DNA from: Myxococcota bacterium
GTDB lineage: Bacteria; Myxococcota_A; UBA9160; JAFDDA01
DNA: 64,000 nucleotides
Direction: 5' to 3'
Assembly: GCA_965228475.1 (NCBI GenBank)
Contig: OZ245817.1
Coordinates: forward strand, 1,824,001 to 1,888,000
Made by a program: the position numbers. This document shows, piece after piece, positions 42,001-48,000 of the stretch. How positions within the stretch are numbered: position 1 is the first letter of the stretch; each line of letters starts with the position of its first letter.

Positions 42001-45000
42001 AACAATGGAATCCTCTTCAGCGAGACCTCGATCTTCGAAGAGCAGGACTTCTTTCGGTTCGATGGAGAGTTCGAACGGGGGCTGTTCAGCTGGCTGACCT
42101 TCTCGTTGAAGGGCGGCGCTTGGTGGGAGGAAGCCGAGCGAGACGTGCAGGCGGGCTTCCTCGAGAACGTTTCCGTCGACGGCGAGAGTAACCAGTTTGC
42201 AATCATTGCCCCGACCGAGGAGGCGCTCGGCGGGGCACCCTTCGAAGACTGTGACGATGGGAACTGCCTAGATCGCGATGAGGACGATGTGTTCCAGTTC
42301 GTCCGGAGCAACACGAACCGCTCTGAACGCGACATCTTCGCTTGGCATCTGAACGGCAAGGCGTCCTTCTTTGACCGGCTCGATCTGCTGGCGGGGCTCC
42401 GTCGGGAGCGGATCGAGATCCGTTCCTTCAACAATCCCTTCGGGGATGGCAGTGGGGCGCCCACGTTCGGGATTCCGCGGATATTCCCGAGTCGATTCAC
42501 GCTATTCGATCGTCTCGACAATCCTGATCGCCCAAACGAGGCCGACCCCCTGAACCCCTTCAACGAGGTTGACCCAATGGATCCGCGGGTGACGGACCCG
42601 GATTTCGCGTTCAATGACCAACTTCTCGGCATCCAGGTTCCCATGGTCCCCTGTCCCACTGCCGATCGGCCCGATCGGATGTGCTCCGATCTCCGGCGCG
42701 GAGATCTCGAAGGTCTGCTCAACGGCGTGATCGATGAGGCATTCATCCTGCCTTCCTACGGTGTTGCCCTTCGGCCCCTCGAGGGTCTCACGTTCCGTGG
42801 CGCCTACTCGCGAACGGTCGCGAGACCCTCGTTTCGTGAGCTCGGATACTACGTAACGGTCGAGACTGGGACCGATGACCGAACGGTCGGGAACCCGCAG
42901 GTAAAGCTCTCGCCGGTCGAGAGCTGGGACCTTCGTGGCGAGTACGTCTGGGGAGACCTTGGGGATATCGTTGCAGTCAGCCTCTTCAAGAAGAACATCG
43001 ACGAACCGATCGAGCGGATCGTCGTTCGTGATCCCCTGGTCCTGACAGGCGATGCAGAGTTTCGAACGTTCTTCAACAATCCCAATACTGCGTCTCTGCG
43101 GGGCTATGAGATCGAGGCGCGGAAGAGCCTTGGGTTCCTATCGTTGAGTTTCCTGGATCGGTTCGACATCAAGCGACCCCGGTGGCTGAAGGGCTTCGAC
43201 TTCCTCCAGTACCTCTCGGTTGGCGGCAACTTCACGAAGATCGACGCCACCGTGAAACGGACGGATGGTGCGGTTCGTGGGGCGGCCGCCTATTTCGCAA
43301 ATGTGCCATCAGGGACCTTCGAGTTCGAAAACATCGAACCTGAGCGAAGGCTTTTCAACCAGCCGGAGTGGATCCTGAATGCGGATATCAGCTTCGACCA
43401 CCCCGATTGGGGCACGAAGCTTACTCTGGCGTACTTCGAGATCAGCGACATTCTCGATGCGGCTGGCACCGCGTCCTTGAACAACTCGGGCGAGCCGTTC
43501 TCCTTCACCTTGGATCAGTACAAGGACTCGTTCCATCAGCTGGACTTCATCGCGAGCCAGAAGGCGCGGATCGAGTTCCTGCGGGCCGATCTGACGGTGA
43601 AGCTCAGCATCAAGAACCTGACGGACAGCACGCGCCGTCTGATCTACGACCCCAACCAGCTCGTCGACCGGATCGCCGAGCGCGAGTACAAGAAGGGCCG
43701 CGACTACTCGCTCTCGTTCTCGTGGAAGTGGGAGTGGTAGGGCGCGCGGCGTTCTAGTTGACCCGGATCGGGACGGGGAGCCGGGCCCGCGCCGCCACGC
43801 GCTCTCCTCCGCGCGTGGGCGGTGTGAAGCGCCAGCCCTCGACCGCGTCGACGATGTAGCGGTCGAAGTCCGGCAGGTCCGAGGCTTCGACCTCAGCGTG
43901 GACGACGTCGCCCTCGGGACTCAGGTCGATCAGCAGGACGACCCTGCCGTGGGCGCGCTTGCGCAGGAGGCGGCGCGGGAACTCGAACCCGCCAGGCTCG
44001 ATCGGCCGAGGCACGGCGTCGAGCTCGCTCCAATGGGCGGGTGTCGCGGGGTCGGGCTCGGAGGCTGCGAGCTCGACGGCCGTGGGTTCAGGGTCCGGCG
44101 CAGGGCGCGTTGCCTCGGCGACGGCCGAGGCGATGGCGTCGCGCCGCTCGGTAAGGCGGGTCTCGAAGGCATCCAGACGCGCGCCATCGCACGGGCCGAG
44201 GCCACAGAAGAGATCGTGGAAGACCGAGGCGGCGACCTTGGTGGCCGACGTGGAGCCGTCGACGACGAGGCTCACCACCGCAATCCGGGGCGCCTCGGCG
44301 GGAGCGACGCCGATGAACCAGCGGTAGCGGCCCGTGGGGTTCGTGCCGCTGAGCGTGCCCGTCTTTCCCGAGACGCGGACGCCTCCGAGGAGCGGTTCGC
44401 CCCGGGCATCGTGGAAGGCGCTTCGCGCCGTGCCGTGCTCGGTGACGTTGACGAGGACCTCTCGCAGCTCGGTGGCGACCTCGGCGGTCCAGACGGGCTG
44501 GGGGGCGGCGCGCTCCGGCGGCTGCATCGGCCGGCCTTCCGCATCCTTCACCCCGGCGATCCAGTAGGGCTCGACGAGTTCGCCCCGCGCGAGCAGCGAG
44601 GCGAGGCGGGCTGCGGACAGCGGGCTGAGGAAGGACCCCGCCAGGCCTGAGCCGAGGCGCCCGAGCGCGAGCGGTCCGTCCAGCGGCTCGAGCCGGCCTG
44701 CGCGGTGCATGGCGCCTGGGACTTCGAGCAGGCCGATCGCCCGGATGGCGCGGATGAGCGCCGTTTCACCGAGGTCCCGGACCGCGAGCCGCGCGAAGCA
44801 CTGGTTGTTCGAGGTGGCCATCGCCTGGGCGAAGGAGACGGAGCGGCCTCCTTCTGCCGGTGGTTCGAGCTGGCTCGTGTAGAGCTCGTAGGGGCTCCCG
44901 TCGTAGCGGCACGTTCGTGCCGTGGCGGTCGGAGCCTCCTGGAGCACGGCGGCTGCGGTCACGACCTTCATCAGGGATGCGGTGGGGTAGGTGCCCGTCG

Positions 45001-48000
45001 CGGGGAAGCGATCCGGGTCGGTCGAGACATAGGCGAGCAGGGCGCCGCTCCCCGGATCCATCACCACCACGTGGCCCAGGTCGACGCCGGACCGGATCAG
45101 CGTGTCGCGAATGCGCCGCTCGAGCGAAAGGTCGAGCGTGTACTCGACCTCGTAGTAGGCGTCCGTTTCCGCGCCGGGTGCCTCGGGCTCCCAGGGCAAT
45201 CGCTCGACCCAAGGCAGGCTCGCCCCGGTCCCGAGTGCCGCTTCCGGCTCGGGTGCGAGGCCGCGAACTCCAGGCGGGAGGAGCGTCGCCCAGGCGGGGC
45301 TCGTCGAAGTCGGTGTCTCGGCACGCGCGGCCGTACCGCTGCCCATGTGAAGAACGAGCAGCGCCAGCGACGCGGCGAGGGCCGGAGCGGGGCGCATGGG
45401 CCAGAAGATATCGCCTGATTTCGCGGAGTTGGCGGGTCTCGCCCGTCCTTCGGGCAGGAATCCGCGACGGCGGCGTTGCGATTTCGTGAGGGTCGTGACG
45501 ATCCCGTGAGCCCCTGCAACACGGGGGCAGGTCCCGCCACTTCAACCTCGAAAAGTCGTCACCCAAGCGTGCCCGCCGGATGGCCGGAGATCGTGGGGGA
45601 TGGCGGCGGATCGGAAGACCCGTCCGAGGCGTGTTCTTAATCTGCGCACCGTTCGGGCCGGAAGAGTCCGGTCGGGACGCAACAGCAGGAACCCAACAGG
45701 GAGCTACCCCAATCATGAAACTGAAATTGTTTGCAGCTCTGGTGCTCGCGGCCGCCGGATTCGCCGGCAACGCGCAGGCGCAGACGGTCGTTGCCGCGGA
45801 CGTCACGTCCGACACGACCTGGAGCGGCGTGATCGTGCTCGACACGGTCATCTTCGTTCGCGACGGCGCGACCCTGACCATCCTCCCCGGTACGATCGTT
45901 CGCGGTCAGCCCCGCTCGGGCCCCGTGGTCGTCGGTTCGACGGTGGGCTCGCCCGGCGCGCTCGTGGTGACCCAGACCGGCCGCATCGTCGCCGATGCGG
46001 ACGAAGCCAACCCGATCATCTTCACGACCGCGGCCGTCGACAACGACAACGACGGCGTGGCCGACGACGATGACGCCAACAACTTCGAGGACTCCTGGGT
46101 CGCCGGCGACACCTTCCTCGACGACACGCCGGCCACGGCGCCCCTCGCTCCGCTGAACACGGCGGGTGAGTCCAACGTCGCCCTCTGGGGTGGCGTGGTG
46201 CTGCTCGGCAACGCGCCGACGAACCTCGCCAACGAGTGCGGCACGGGCTACGGCACCTGCGTGATCGAGGGCCTGACGGTTCCGGGCTTCCCGGCGGCCT
46301 TCGCGACCTACGGTGGCGTGGACCCGAACGACAGCTCGGGCATCCTCGAGTACGTCTCGATCCGCCACGCGGGCGACGAGATCGGCAACGGCAACGAGCT
46401 CAACGGCCTCACCCTCGGTGGCGTCGGCCAGGGCACCAAGATCGCCTTCGTCGAGATCTACGCGAACTTCGACGACGGCTTCGAGTGGTTCGGCGGCACG
46501 GCCTCCGGCTCGAACCTGCACGTCCTGTTCGTGGGCGACGACTCGCTCGACGCCGACCAGGGCTACACGGGCGTCAACCAGTTCGTCTTCGTCGTCATGG
46601 GCTTCTTCGACGAGAACGACGACGACAGCTACGGCTCGCGCTCCGGTGACAAGGCCGGCGAGCTCGACGGCGACGACTGGCGCCCGGACGACCCGGCGCT
46701 GTTCGACAACGTGAACGTGCGCATCAATCAGCCGCTCACCGCGATCGACTCGACGCCCTGGCCGCTCTCGCAGTTCCAGTTCCACAACGTGACGGTCATC
46801 GGCTCGACGCCGGACGCCGGGCAGGAATTCACGCCCAGCTTCCCGGCTTCGACCAACGACGGCATCCAGTGGCGCAACGGTGGCGCGGGCTACGTGTTCC
46901 ACTCCATCGTCGTGAACACCGGCGCCGAGGGCGGGATCGAGATCGATTCCGACATCGGTGACGGTTCGCCGGGCTTCGACACCACGAACAACGTGGCGAA
47001 CGGCCTGGTGGCGCTGGTCTGCTCGACCCTCGACGACGGTGCTGCGCTCTCGGCGGACGAGTCGACGGCGGTGGCCAACGGCAACGCGCTCGCCGACACG
47101 CTCGGTGGCACGCCGCCGGCCTCGAACAACGTGGTCAACAGCCCGCTGTTCCCCGGCCTCGTGAACGAGGACCAGACCTTCGACCCGACCGGTGATGCGG
47201 CCGGCAAGCTCGTGAGCACGCTCAAGAGCTCGCCGATCAACCCGCGGCCGAACTTCGGCCTCACGGGAATCATCGGTTGCCCGACGATCGACAACAAGCT
47301 GGTGACCCCGGTGACGTACCGCGGCGCGTTCGATCGCACCGCCCCGCGCCTCTGGACCACCGGTTGGACGGTCCTGAGCCTCTCCGGCCTGATCGCAGAC
47401 TGAGAACGTCACTCCCTTCCGGCCCGCCTGCCTGGCGGTGGGCGGGCCGGAAACTTCTCCCTGAGGAAGGAAAAGGATTTCGATCATGAAGAAACTGATT
47501 CTGTTGGCATCCATCATTGCGCTCGCGCCGGCCGGCTCCGCCAAGGCGGCGATGATCGCGGGCTTCGATCACAACTCCTACGTCGCAGGCTTCTTGTCGA
47601 CGGACGGCGCGACCCTCGTCGACACGCTCGACGCGCGCTACTCGGACTTCGACCCGACCTTCGGTGCGGGCGCGGAAGCCGGCGCCTTCGGCACGCTCTA
47701 CATGGACGGCTCGTTCGGCTCCACGGCGACGCCGCTCGACGGCTCGGACCCCTACACCTCGACCTCGGGCAGCCTTTCCTCGAACGTGACGGCTCCGGTG
47801 AACGGTGAGCCGGCCGGCGACGTGCCCTTCGGCTCGACGACGGTGCTGACTTCCGAGGGCGTGGCTCCGTTCGGTTCCGAGATCAAGATGGTGGCCAACG
47901 CGGCGACCAGCGTCGTCTACTCGGCGGACCTGTCCTCGATCGCCTCGGTCGGTGACAACTGGAACCTGAGCTTCGCGGGCCAGACGCCGATCGGTACGGC

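Follow-up and report, generated by a model that had tools for sequence, protein, structure and literature searches.

A secreted penicillin-binding-type enzyme with a TonB C-terminal tail looks like a wall-cutting accessory of an unusual TonB system in uncultured Myxococcota

We analysed a 64,000-nucleotide stretch of a Myxococcota genome (assembly GCA_965228475.1, contig OZ245817.1; hereafter the window) and found a gene that joins a penicillin-binding protein (PBP) transpeptidase-fold domain to a TonB C-terminal domain (CTD), the latter descended from the TonB CTD of the system encoded in the same cluster. Its product, P0001, appears to belong, as a built-in accessory that cuts the wall, to an unusual outer-membrane import machine of uncultured Myxococcota. 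Tentatively, we take it to be a soluble periplasmic acyl-serine D,D-peptidase that serves a divergent Ttp-type TonB system by trimming the cell's own wall, a reading that we regard as quite possible but short of probable. The gene and its parts are as follows.

43754..45397, (-), P0001 gene, 547-aa PBP::TonB_C fusion (ORF with ATG start, translation, Pfam Transpeptidase and TonB_C, AF2 model)
45320..45397, (-), predicted Sec signal peptide, residues 1-26, cleavage ...TAARA/E (from the sequence by eye; low AF2 pLDDT)
44210..45076, (-), penicillin-binding transpeptidase-fold domain, residues 108-396 (Pfam E 4.8e-27, motifs, structure match)
43985..44209, (-), linker, residues 397-471 (alignment and AF2 model)
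43757..44035, (-), TonB-type C-terminal module, residues 455-547, Pfam TonB_C at 472-542 (Pfam, NCBIfam, identity to a TonB CTD)

Pfam Transpeptidase matched residues 108-396 over HMM positions 1-297 of 299 (E 4.8e-27; 95.4 bits, cut-off 22.1), and TonB_C matched residues 472-542 (E 3e-9; 37.6 bits, cut-off 24.6). NCBIfam tonB_Cterm also matched the protein (40.1 bits, cut-off 27.1). The three catalytic motifs are intact (S141-L-M-K144, S196-N-N198 and K345-T-G347), and SxxK, SxN and KTG are invariant in 63/63 aligned family members. The AF2 model has a mean pLDDT of 91.4, with values of 91-97 in the TonB_C module and low values in the signal-peptide region, where a helix spans residues 7-16. 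The linker contains an invariant C398/C403 pair, a helix at 407-429, a low-confidence stretch and a conserved LD..PRP lead-in. The PBP domain is structurally closest to M. tuberculosis PBPA (3lo7; Foldseek E 1.4e-19, 26% identity), and the closest PDB sequence match is 3un7 (phmmer, 7.7e-16). Pfam reported neither a PBP_dimer (pedestal) nor an M56 domain in P0001. As the predicted signal peptide lacks a lipobox Cys, the protein should not be a lipoprotein. We infer that P0001 is a soluble periplasmic enzyme of class-B-PBP-type fold, without pedestal or membrane anchor; it may act on peptidoglycan by hydrolysis, although a PBP fold could cross-link instead of cutting.

The genome-wide survey's note on this gene (there g01692) had described a signal peptide, a transpeptidase domain with intact motifs and a TonB_C domain in place of any membrane anchor or dimerisation domain. 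ORF, Pfam and motifs bear out this architecture, the signal peptide as a prediction. The alternative it entertained, a BlaR-like sensor remnant, is unlikely, given the absence of M56, the invariant motifs and the class-B-PBP-like domain.

On the strand opposite to P0001 lies a TonB operon with its receptor, and further genes flank the two.

31828..34055, (+), two conserved cluster-edge genes: weakly VWA-like, 31828-32940 (Pfam VWA E 2.4e-5), and a 323-aa protein, 33084-34055
34366..35229, (+), DUF3450 protein (TtpB-like), first gene of the operon (Pfam E 2.2e-21)
35226..36653, (+), long MotA/ExbB-family protein (TtpC-like, 475 aa; Pfam MotA_ExbB 338-456, E 1.7e-27)
36662..37243, (+), ExbB (193 aa; Pfam MotA_ExbB E 2.8e-23)
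37246..37647, (+), ExbD copy 1, GTG start just past the ExbB stop (Pfam ExbD E 1.2e-27 on a longer ORF; start from sequence)
37657..38061, (+), ExbD copy 2 (134 aa; Pfam ExbD E 3.2e-26)
38061..38714, (+), TonB (217 aa): membrane anchor, acidic/proline-rich spacer, CTD resembling the fusion tail (Pfam TonB_C 142-212)
38745..40112, (+), TPR protein (455 aa) in the TtpD position (Pfam TPR families, best E 1.3e-32)
40144..43740, (+), TonB-dependent receptor, 1198-aa ORF from the first ATG (Pfam CarboxypepD_reg, Plug, beta-barrel)
45715..47403, (+), secreted pectate-lyase-like beta-helix protein, conserved beside the receptor (Protein Atlas feature score 0.98 to PF28492 Beta_helix_4 clusters)
47486..48271, (+), PEP-CTERM protein (261 aa; Pfam PEP-CTERM E 1.6e-5)
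48324..49214, (+), conserved protein, family unassigned, 296 aa (orthologues in the cluster in 5 loci)

The ExbB/ExbD/TonB operon noted earlier is therefore present in a fuller order: DUF3450, long MotA/ExbB, ExbB, ExbD, ExbD, TonB, TPR. The receptor and P0001 genes do converge, with 13 nt between their stop codons; the receptor's length of 1176 aa is revised to 1198 aa from the first ATG. The receptor matched NCBIfam TonB-Xanth-Caul at E 5.2e-56, which is below that model's cut-off. Its candidate TonB box lies at approximately L147-V154, with L147, L149, F152, V153 and V154 invariant in 9 orthologues. Neither the beta-helix protein nor the 296-aa protein had a match in the Pfam version scanned. 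Orthologues of the beta-helix protein occur at L033, L040, L041, L049 and L118, those of the PEP-CTERM protein in 5 loci, and those of the cluster-edge genes beside the fusion or the operon at L036, L037, L038, L062, L113 and L115.

The gene order resembles that of the Vibrio TonB2/TonB3 (Ttp) systems. In V. vulnificus this is ttpB (DUF3450), ttpC, exbB, exbD, tonB, ttpD, and the TonB3 operon includes a receptor gene, according to the accessible part of PMC6957404. The window likewise runs from DUF3450 through long MotA/ExbB, ExbB, ExbD, TonB and TPR to the receptor, the likeness to TtpD being one of position. It differs in having two ExbD genes, an additional enzyme, secreted and bearing a duplicate of the TonB CTD, and a divergent DUF3450 subtype, which scored 76.8 bits compared with 196-304 bits for canonical copies in relatives. 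The accessible text of the Vibrio paper mentions no TonB-CTD-bearing enzyme, and the word "peptidoglycan" occurs 0 times in it.

The tail of P0001 is a paralogue of the neighbouring TonB CTD. Residues 455-546 share 55% identity (E 7.2e-27) with the CTD of the TonB at 38061-38714, 5 kb upstream, and matched none of the four other TonB_C regions of the genome. Residues shared with TonB CTDs are kept in the tail (including ARLPIPI), and those common to TonB, PBP and M15 tails (the last described below) include the terminal strand R539-L-P-I-P-I544. In a tree of tails, true TonB CTDs fell on one side of a branch and enzyme-borne tails on the other (73/92; 75% of bootstrap trees). At position 529, R prevails in the PBP tails (69%) and the M15 tails (76%), and Q in the TonB CTDs (83%). 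Since they stand apart in the tree and differ at this position, the enzyme tails may have a partner other than that of the TonB CTD.

The fusion is a conserved Myxococcota family; both PF03544 and PF00905 were present on 114 of the 120 best database matches listed. The survey's note had counted 13 of 16 relatives with the PBP-like part and 2 in which the match ran through TonB_C, and had worried that most relatives lack the tail or have a strongly divergent one. Our search of 41 related genomes confirmed the breadth of the PBP match (36/41) and put the matches reaching residue 546-547 at 5/41 (G000, G002, G013, G027 and G033). The remaining matching relatives encode a paralogue elsewhere in the genome; it is anchored in the membrane at its N-terminus, lacks TonB_C and sits in a neighbourhood of housekeeping type (NifU, HAD, PilZ, AlgH-like). 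The apparent lack of TonB_C is therefore paralogy and not decay of the fusion, which disposes of that worry. In a tree of the PBP domain, fused and anchored forms part at one branch (SH-aLRT 99), consistent with one swap in which a TonB tail took the place of an inner-membrane anchor. Neither the fusion nor the variant operon was found in G001, a congener of the window genome that is 89% complete.

Linkage of the fusion to the divergent Ttp operon variant is conserved. Cluster genes flank 10/15 fused loci and 0/65 loci of the unfused paralogue. Placement of the fused gene varies: it lies in the tonB-TPR gap, as PBP fusions do at L040, L049 and L118, or ahead of DUF3450, or past the receptor; elsewhere it is transcribed divergently from the operon or convergently with the receptor. 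Its direct neighbour is the receptor gene in the window, at L041 and at L116. Of the 41 genomes, 6 have the divergent DUF3450 subtype (70-89 bits), exactly the six with an enzyme::TonB_C gene, and such a gene is present in 0/19 genomes having the canonical subtype only. At 5/15 fused loci no cluster gene lies in the flanks; these flanks extend to 10 kb in both directions at two of the loci and in one direction only at a third. By their tails, four of the five make up a clade of their own.

At two loci of a single genus (G008 and G043), the PBP module is replaced by an unrelated LAS/M15-type zinc peptidase: the gene that follows tonB and precedes the TPR gene there encodes 279 aa, comprising a signal peptide, a LAS-type domain and the same TonB_C tail. 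All of 25 sequences share H98, D105 and H141. Structural comparison gave middling VIA Z scores, of 8.2 to the zinc D-Ala-D-Ala carboxypeptidase 1lbu (99 residues, 3.6 A), 7.8 to the M15 endolysin 8q2g and 7.3 to VanXYg, and Pfam scores were below cut-off (DUF5715, 22.0 against 26.8; Peptidase_M15_3, E 0.09). What PBP and M15 folds have in common is hydrolysis of D-amino-acid peptidoglycan peptides.

Several results support the idea that TonB_C is a tag that targets a D,D-peptidase in the periplasm: the 55% identity to the adjacent TonB CTD, the shared residues, the linkage and, weakly, a complex model. For the more specific claim of docking on the receptor's TonB box, the evidence points partly the same way. 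The tail (455-547) modelled with residues 137-300 of the receptor, its TonB-box and plug region, scored 0.53, compared with 0.00 for the best of three controls; contacts agreed between runs to 84% or more, and the partner's pLDDT was 83 or higher. In a benchmark, 116/157 solved complexes and 2/215 mismatches attained the mark, and scores of 0.60 or less at that mark came from just 18 of the 157 solved complexes and from both passing mismatches. As TonB-receptor complexes have already been solved, the pass may reflect mere likeness. Further, a tail docked simply on the TonB box would be in competition with TonB for that site, which speaks against such an arrangement. Docking is plausible, and the model hints at it; the partner would most likely be the TonB box of the cluster receptor, but might instead be TonB, ExbD, the TPR protein or peptidoglycan.

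On our favoured reading, the tail would bind whatever the TonB CTD binds, most likely that TonB box, and would so place P0001 beneath the outer membrane at the TonB machine. There it would cut stem peptides or cross-links of the cell's own peptidoglycan, as a hydrolase and not a synthase. The purpose would be local loosening or trimming of the wall that lets the envelope-spanning transducer, and perhaps bulky cargo, pass. Peptidoglycan has itself been given an anchoring role in the Ton mechanism.

The survey's note preferred another substrate: the receptor would import peptidoglycan fragments or D-Ala peptides, and the tethered peptidase would trim or split them at the barrel exit. Both the PBP and M15 modules act on D-amino-acid peptides, the gene abuts the receptor at the three places named, the beta-helix and PEP-CTERM proteins, surface or secreted, could capture polymer, and the modelled docking (0.53 versus 0.00) would suit such a role. 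There is also a precedent in the Pectobacterium Fus system, which reportedly couples a TonB homologue of its own to a periplasmic protease acting on the cargo brought in; the searches here returned structures of the FusB CTD. We consider this reading unlikely. Pfam found no peptidoglycan-recycling gene, amidase or inner-membrane importer among the ORFs scanned (approximately 13-62 kb of the window), and in G008 the fusion is part of the TonB operon, on a 13.8-kb contig that gave no receptor match. In 5 loci the gene sits between tonB and the TPR gene, a position that suggests the transducer, not the receptor, as its associate, and a soluble enzyme could reach small periplasmic cargo without a tether. 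On another reading P0001 is a regulator or decoy: the tail would compete for the TonB box or pair with the TonB CTD, and the PBP module would read wall state, in the form of free D-Ala-D-Ala stems, or a beta-lactam and throttle transport to suit the envelope. PBP-fold domains serve as sensors in BlaR1/MecR1, and the tail is of the cognate TonB's subclass with the shared surface residues kept. Moreover, according to the CenIR preprint (PMC13081940), TonB_C ranks second in frequency among the C-terminal domains of BlaR1-like M56 sensors, and TonB_C-bearing proteins second among M56 architectures, so the domain is used outside energy transduction. Pfam found no membrane or signalling domain in P0001 that could pass a signal, however; three invariant motifs suggest turnover and not binding alone, and replacement by a zinc hydrolase of another fold is more easily explained by shared catalysis than by shared sensing. 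We rate such a regulator as improbable.

Two further readings seem more doubtful still. P0001 could be a housekeeping enzyme of low-molecular-weight PBP type whose TonB_C binds peptidoglycan or the outer membrane, its position in the TonB cluster being incidental. TonB CTDs have been reported to bind peptidoglycan, cluster genes are missing near 5/15 fused loci and the anchored paralogue keeps housekeeping company, but linkage at 10/15 versus 0/65 loci persists despite changing gene order, co-occurrence with the variant operon is exact (6/6 genomes), the tail matches only the cognate TonB within the genome, and the same slot is taken by another peptidase on the same tail; we judge this very improbable. 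A tether at the receptor would also make sense, and its exit would be occupied by a PBP fold whose active site is intact, if P0001 intercepted beta-lactams or D-Ala-D-Ala-mimic toxins (Trojan-horse antibiotics) there as a sacrificial binder or slow hydrolase. To this we give scarcely any credence: we know of no beta-lactam binding by M15-type enzymes, resistance gene context is absent, and the proteins matched best are class B PBPs of synthetic type rather than beta-lactamases. A metallo-beta-lactamase::TonB_C match, P0233, proved to be a chimera that still holds the tail end of a PBP domain.

To our knowledge, no TonB system with a dedicated peptidoglycan hydrolase has been described. TagX, an L,D-endopeptidase, is a wall hydrolase encoded with an envelope-spanning machine, as P0001 would be, but P0001 would be aimed by a docking domain borrowed from the machine itself. 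TagX is needed for biogenesis of the Acinetobacter T6SS (PMC5061870), whereas a need for P0001 is a proposal. P0001 shares the transpeptidase fold and three active-site motifs with class B PBPs (M. tuberculosis PBPA 3lo7, and 3un7) but lacks their pedestal, N-terminal anchor and nearby SEDS partner gene, and has a signal peptide and TonB_C instead. A 2025 survey of bPBP architectures lists transpeptidase-only proteins, and TonB is unmentioned in its text and one supplementary file. The BlaR1-like M56 proteins likewise carry an accessory periplasmic TonB_C on a non-transducer; they are membrane metalloprotease sensors in which TonB_C replaces the PBP-type sensor, whereas P0001 is soluble, has both domains and lacks M56. 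Anabaena SjdR (formerly TonB1) is an exceptionally short TonB-like protein with a proposed role in peptidoglycan structuring, not transport; the accessible part of PMC8597729 mentions no enzyme domain in it, whereas P0001 joins an enzyme to a TonB tail and its gene belongs to a TonB operon cluster.

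The genome-wide survey's note had described a PBP-type transpeptidase domain fused to a TonB C-terminal domain at 43754-45397. This architecture was borne out by the open reading frame (ORF) and by Pfam, in which Transpeptidase and TonB_C both score above their cut-offs.

43754-45397, minus strand: fusion gene, an ATG-started ORF encoding the 547-residue protein P0001

The Transpeptidase domain (PF00905) occupies residues 108-396 of P0001 (HMM positions 1-297 of 299, E = 4.8e-27, 95.4 bits against a cut-off of 22.1). TonB_C (PF03544) occupies residues 472-542 (E = 3e-9, 37.6 bits against a cut-off of 24.6), and the NCBIfam model tonB_Cterm (TIGR01352) agrees, with 40.1 bits against a cut-off of 27.1. 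The active-site motifs SxxK (S141/K144), SxN (S196/N198), and KTG (K345-T-G347) can be read directly from the sequence. In an alignment of 63 sequences, S141, K144, S196, N197, N198, K345, T346, and G347 are invariant, as are two cysteine pairs, C163/C200 and C398/C403. The N terminus, MRPAPALAASLALLVLHMGSGTAARA/E, reads as a cleavable-type signal peptide lacking a lipobox cysteine. Only about 80 residues separate this peptide from the transpeptidase domain, and P0001 contains no other transmembrane segment. An AlphaFold model built with 63 homologues (mean pLDDT 91.4) consists of two confident domains joined by a helix (residues 407-429) and a low-confidence stretch; pLDDT in the TonB_C region is 91-97. 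Near the mature N terminus lies an L-P-P-G-x-R motif (residues 40-45, window ~45263-45280; pLDDT ~85), whose L40, P41, P42, and R45 are at least 90% conserved across the fused family and which is absent from the M15-type family described below.

P0001 resembles three known kinds of protein and differs from each. Its enzyme domain is closest in structure to class B PBPs (M. tuberculosis PBPA, 3lo7, Foldseek E = 1.4e-19) and has a phmmer match to 3un7 (7.7e-16). However, morphogenetic class B PBPs carry a pedestal domain N-terminal to the transpeptidase, and the pedestal PBP_dimer (PF03717) has no Pfam match in P0001 at E up to 0.01. These enzymes also have an N-terminal membrane anchor, in place of which P0001 has a predicted signal peptide, and no cognate SEDS glycosyltransferase (FtsW/RodA family) was present among the window neighbors scanned with Pfam. 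Like a TonB energy transducer, P0001 possesses a TonB_C domain, but it lacks both the N-terminal helix that couples to ExbB/ExbD and the proline-rich spacer: its N terminus is a signal peptide followed by the enzyme domain, whereas the true TonB encoded nearby has an anchor and an acidic/proline-rich spacer. BlaR1/MecR1 sensor-transducers join an M56 membrane domain to a PBP-type sensor, and M56 (PF05569) has no Pfam match in P0001. The idea of a BlaR remnant or class D beta-lactamase was rejected, as none of 38 PDB sequence matches (E up to 0.1) is so named.

Upstream of the fusion gene, the plus strand encodes, in order, DUF3450, a 475-aa MotA/ExbB protein, ExbB, two ExbDs, TonB (38061-38714), a TPR protein, and a receptor. 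The receptor ORF (1198 aa) comprises a CarboxypepD_reg N-terminal domain, a plug, and a barrel; the receptor and fusion genes are convergent, with 13 nt between their stops. According to PMC6957404, the Vibrio TonB2 operon runs ttpB (DUF3450), ttpC, exbB, exbD, tonB, ttpD, and the TonB3 operon contains a receptor gene in addition. The window operon has the domain content and order of this Ttp type, with the TPR protein equated with ttpD by position. An ORF at 36619-37647 (342 aa) was discarded as an over-extended frame; the real genes there are ExbB (36662-37243) and an ExbD starting from GTG at 37246. At six loci, two genes accompany the upstream edge of the operon (window 31828-34055), one for a protein with weak VWA similarity and the other for a protein of 323 aa that belongs to no known family. 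An AraC-type regulator (30627-31949, minus strand) is divergent from them.

Downstream and divergent from the fusion gene (45715-49214) are genes for a beta-helix protein, a PEP-CTERM protein, and a third conserved protein. The beta-helix protein is secreted and pectate-lyase-like (Protein Atlas score 0.98 to PF28492 clusters). All three are conserved downstream of the receptor across several genomes and may define its uptake substrate. A 497-aa ORF on the opposite strand (47270-48763, minus) was dropped because its translation is Arg-rich and antisense-looking; its apparent conservation arises because the real genes there lie on the plus strand.

The TonB-type module at the C terminus of P0001 (residues 455-547, hereafter the tail) is closely related to the TonB of this operon. 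Residues 455-546 are 55% identical to the C-terminal domain (CTD) of that TonB (E = 7.2e-27, within the same genome), and the four other TonB_C regions of the genome do not match the tail. The similar region extends N-terminally beyond the Pfam domain to a conserved LD..PRP lead-in. A comparison of 12 TonB CTDs, 39 PBP-borne tails, and 25 M15-borne tails shows many positions that all three groups conserve, among them the final strand, R539-L-P-I-P-I544; in the BtuB-TonB and FhuA-TonB structures, it is reportedly this strand that pairs with the TonB box. A branch of the tail tree (73/92, in 75% of bootstrap trees) sets the true TonB CTDs apart, and the PBP-borne and M15-borne tails are intermixed. 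The domain is short; the larger tail tree is weakly resolved, with moderate support at most, and a tree with a distant outgroup gave no resolution. At position 529, R is found in 69% of PBP tails and 76% of M15 tails, and 83% of TonB CTDs have Q. From these sequence comparisons, the tail appears to descend from the CTD of the operon's own TonB.

We also searched with the tail alone (93 residues; exhaustive, profile-free, E up to 0.001), obtaining 3312 proteins. Among the 150 matches listed, the single-domain ones of ~185 aa or more that were examined by Pfam or sequence (~44-61% identity) were TonBs, PBP fusions (whole or fragments), and M15-type fusions. The rest carry two to eight tandem TonB_C repeats at ~30% identity and are a different matter; such proteins of 350-1000 aa include P0157, P0158, P0205, and P0168. 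One of them, P0284, combines an M56 domain with three TonB_C domains. We rejected P0233 as a third fusion type (Lactamase_B with TonB_C), since the end of the PBP domain is still present in its sequence; it is probably an assembly or gene-call chimera of a cytoplasmic-type metallo-beta-lactamase-fold N terminus, a PBP end, and TonB_C. In one genome (G027), another TonB whose CTD belongs to this subclass stands alone (locus L114, C1:378000-397999, at ~9365-9982); no Ttp operon genes were matched within that 20-kb stretch.

A search of 5.8 billion clustered proteins, with 8000 candidates scored, yielded at least 391 homologues of P0001 at E up to 0.001. PF03544 and PF00905 occur together in 114 of the 120 best-listed rows (query included; 46-62% identity). 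The other six have no precomputed TonB_C, yet in two of them (P0056 and P0118) the tail is visible in the sequence. By record title the homologues come from Myxococcota metagenome-assembled genomes, some under other labels; as far as searched, the fused family is confined to uncultured Myxococcota.

Within 41 related genomes, P0001 as query matches 36, but the match extends through residue 546-547 in only five (G000, G002, G013, G027, and G033). The survey's note had supposed that most relatives lack the TonB_C part or have one too divergent to align. The scarcity of full-length matches stands; its cause is that the other matching genomes encode a different protein, a paralogue in which the transpeptidase domain is joined to a basic cytoplasmic tail and a single transmembrane helix, and which lacks TonB_C. 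The transpeptidase domain of this anchored paralogue ends in the same F-C...C motif as the fused form. Both forms are present in G013, G027, and G033; the same query gave no match to the anchored form in G000, G001, or G002. As a single branch (SH-aLRT 99) parts 25 fused from 16 anchored rows in an enzyme-domain tree, the fused form looks like one lineage in which a signal peptide and a TonB tail took the place of the inner-membrane anchor. The genes around the anchored paralogue (NifU, HAD, PilZ, AlgH-like, response regulator) are of a housekeeping kind and give no hint of function. Such transpeptidase-only, pedestal-less anchored PBPs are common in Myxococcota (65 loci within L045-L112, for example L048:9647-11197), and their NifU, HAD, PilZ, and AlgH-like surroundings are conserved.

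To compare neighborhoods, we scanned one genome per species, giving 80 loci, 15 fused and 65 anchored. Cluster genes flank 10 of the 15 fused loci and none of the 65 anchored ones; core TonB-operon genes are found at seven fused loci and the receptor at eight. Positions vary. The interval from tonB to the TPR gene (hereafter the slot) contains the fusion gene at L040 and L049; elsewhere the gene is upstream of DUF3450 on the same strand (L036 and L042), divergent from the operon (L043), directly after the receptor (L041), or convergent with it (the window). Two metagenome contigs found with the tail hold further PBP fusions, in the slot (L118) and after the receptor (L116). Thus, linkage of the fused gene to the cluster is conserved and gene order is not. 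No cluster gene was seen at the remaining five fused loci, for which full 10-kb flanks were available on both sides for two and on one side for one. Four of these five form a separate tail clade, and the five share no neighbor, save one gene common to L039 and L046.

The fusion also follows a particular form of the operon. By score, the DUF3450 matches in the 41 genomes divide into a canonical class of 196-304 bits (20 genomes) and a divergent one of 70-89 bits (six genomes: G000, G002, G008, G013, G027, and G033). These six are exactly the genomes, among the 41, that encode an enzyme with this tail subclass; there is none in the 19 genomes with the canonical class alone or in the 16 with neither. 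Since the six fall in four families of one order, they are not independent, yet they are not one clone. A genome of the window's own genus (G001, 89% complete) has the canonical operon only and no fusion.

In one of the six, G008, the enzyme is of another kind. This genome contains the anchored PBP paralogue and lacks the PBP fusion; its slot holds a 279-aa protein (P0124/P0125) in which a signal peptide precedes a 110-residue domain, and a disordered linker connects this domain to the same tail. The arrangement recurs in G043, of the same genus. There are about 25 homologues; a query with the N-domain matched strongly in only two of 193 genomes of the order (G008 and G043), and a metagenome scan for the M15-type fusion gave six loci, all tail-only matches with no M15 domain; L116 and L118 are two of these. 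In 25 sequences of this type, S96-Q-H98-x-x-G-L-A-W-D105 and H141 are invariant; we take H98-x6-D105 with the distal H141 to be the LAS/M15 zinc-ligand signature. In Pfam, the domain stays under the cut-off (DUF5715, 22.0 against 26.8 bits; Peptidase_M15_3, E = 0.093). In a structural model (domain pLDDT 82-97), the closest VIA matches are the Streptomyces Zn D-Ala-D-Ala carboxypeptidase 1lbu (Z 8.2, 99 aligned, 3.6 Å), the M15 endolysin 8q2g (7.8), Hedgehog N-domains (~7.4), VanXYg (7.3), and ChiX and LysB4 (7.2); by PDB entry, 4f78 scores 7.3 and 5opz 7.2. Values of 7-8 are middling on the tool's scale, and all the matches share one fold. Foldseek gave probabilities of 0.96-0.99 for five named LAS peptidases and 0.91 and 0.66 for two others (E 0.01-0.1). 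The model and these motifs point to a Hedgehog/DD-peptidase fold of LAS/M15 type.

Because PBP and LAS/M15 domains both occur in the slot on the same tail, two unrelated folds are involved whose common ground is the cleavage of D-amino-acid peptidoglycan peptides. This replacement, seen at two loci in one genus, is the strongest clue to function and favors hydrolysis over cross-linking for the PBP module.

For the tail's partner, the receptor offers a candidate TonB box, V146-L-E-L-E-A-F-V-V-E-A156, between its N-terminal domain and plug; L147, L149, F152, V153, and V154 are invariant in nine orthologues. A complex model of the tail (455-547) with receptor residues 137-300 scored 0.53, and the best of three controls 0.00. 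The runs agree in at least 84% of contacts, with partner pLDDT of at least 83. Of 157 solved complexes, 116 reach the mark set for this score, as do 2 of 215 mismatched pairs; at 0.60 or under, it is reached by only 18 of the 157 and by both passing mismatches. As our model was built on its own alignments, these counts are approximate. The solved TonB-receptor complexes 2gsk, 2grx, and 6i97 are among the structural matches, so the score shows likeness rather than binding by this tail. The modeling thus lends weak support to docking on the TonB box. There, the tail would compete with TonB, a real difficulty for such docking.

We consider it very probable that P0001 is an accessory of this TonB system. 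In the mechanism we favor, it would be an accessory subunit of the operon variant, a periplasmic peptidoglycan-peptide hydrolase that a TonB-derived docking domain addresses to the receptor's TonB box or to the transducer, and that trims the cell's own wall locally; taken whole, this mechanism is tentative, and we put it at somewhat under an even chance. The survey's note had proposed that the tethered peptidase acts on imported cargo. We regard this as unlikely, as nothing in the scanned window ORFs points to muropeptide use and the fusion's tie to the transducer genes is at least as close as its tie to the receptor. Less likely again are roles as a decoy or regulator, as a guard against toxins of the beta-lactam type, or in housekeeping unrelated to this system.

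A bolder form of the wall-trimming mechanism is less probable than the mechanism itself: the tail would recruit the wall-cutting peptidase only to receptors with an exposed TonB box, that is, those loaded with ligand, so that the mesh is opened on demand. Peptidoglycan would then be opened at the very sites to which the transducer has to extend or through which bulky cargo has to travel, and a serine PBP-type or zinc LAS-type module would be exchangeable on a fixed docking module. If true, substrate-gated local wall remodeling would be an integral step in one class of TonB-dependent transport.

TonB systems are standard textbook material, and debate continues over how the transducer operates across the peptidoglycan layer. 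TagX is reportedly a T6SS peptidoglycan hydrolase. Peptidoglycan is given a role in the Ton mechanism by Zinke et al., and the TonB-like SjdR of Anabaena shapes peptidoglycan according to PMC8597729. The work on these three makes wall trimming a reasonable idea without proving it. A TonB variant always found with a wall peptidase on a copied docking domain would be a natural experiment on local wall remodeling in outer-membrane transport, the case for which is strengthened by the finding that a zinc enzyme can stand in for the serine enzyme. Such a variant would further show the TonB CTD to be a portable address tag for periplasmic enzymes and would provide transpeptidase-only PBPs with a function.

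Neither domain is new, and databases already contain the fused architecture under generic names. TonB_C on non-transducers has been reported for M56 sensors (PMC13081940), and transpeptidase-only PBPs were called unstudied in a recent survey of class B PBPs (PMC12516126), in whose text and one supplementary file "TonB" does not occur. Our literature search, with other supplements and subscription journals outside it, found no description of the PBP fusion. Three points appear to be new: the fusion's conserved link to a single variant of the Ttp-type operon, the tail's descent from that operon's TonB, and the interchangeable enzyme module.

Two further ORFs in the window have unusual domain content. 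One, at 15644-18214, encodes 856 aa with STT3/AglB-like oligosaccharyltransferase domains (AglB_L1, E = 5.3e-16), which are unusual for a bacterium. The other, at 19020-22634 on the minus strand, encodes a 1204-aa protein that combines a double zinc ribbon, an adenylate/guanylate cyclase, an AAA_16 ATPase, and MalT-like TPRs.
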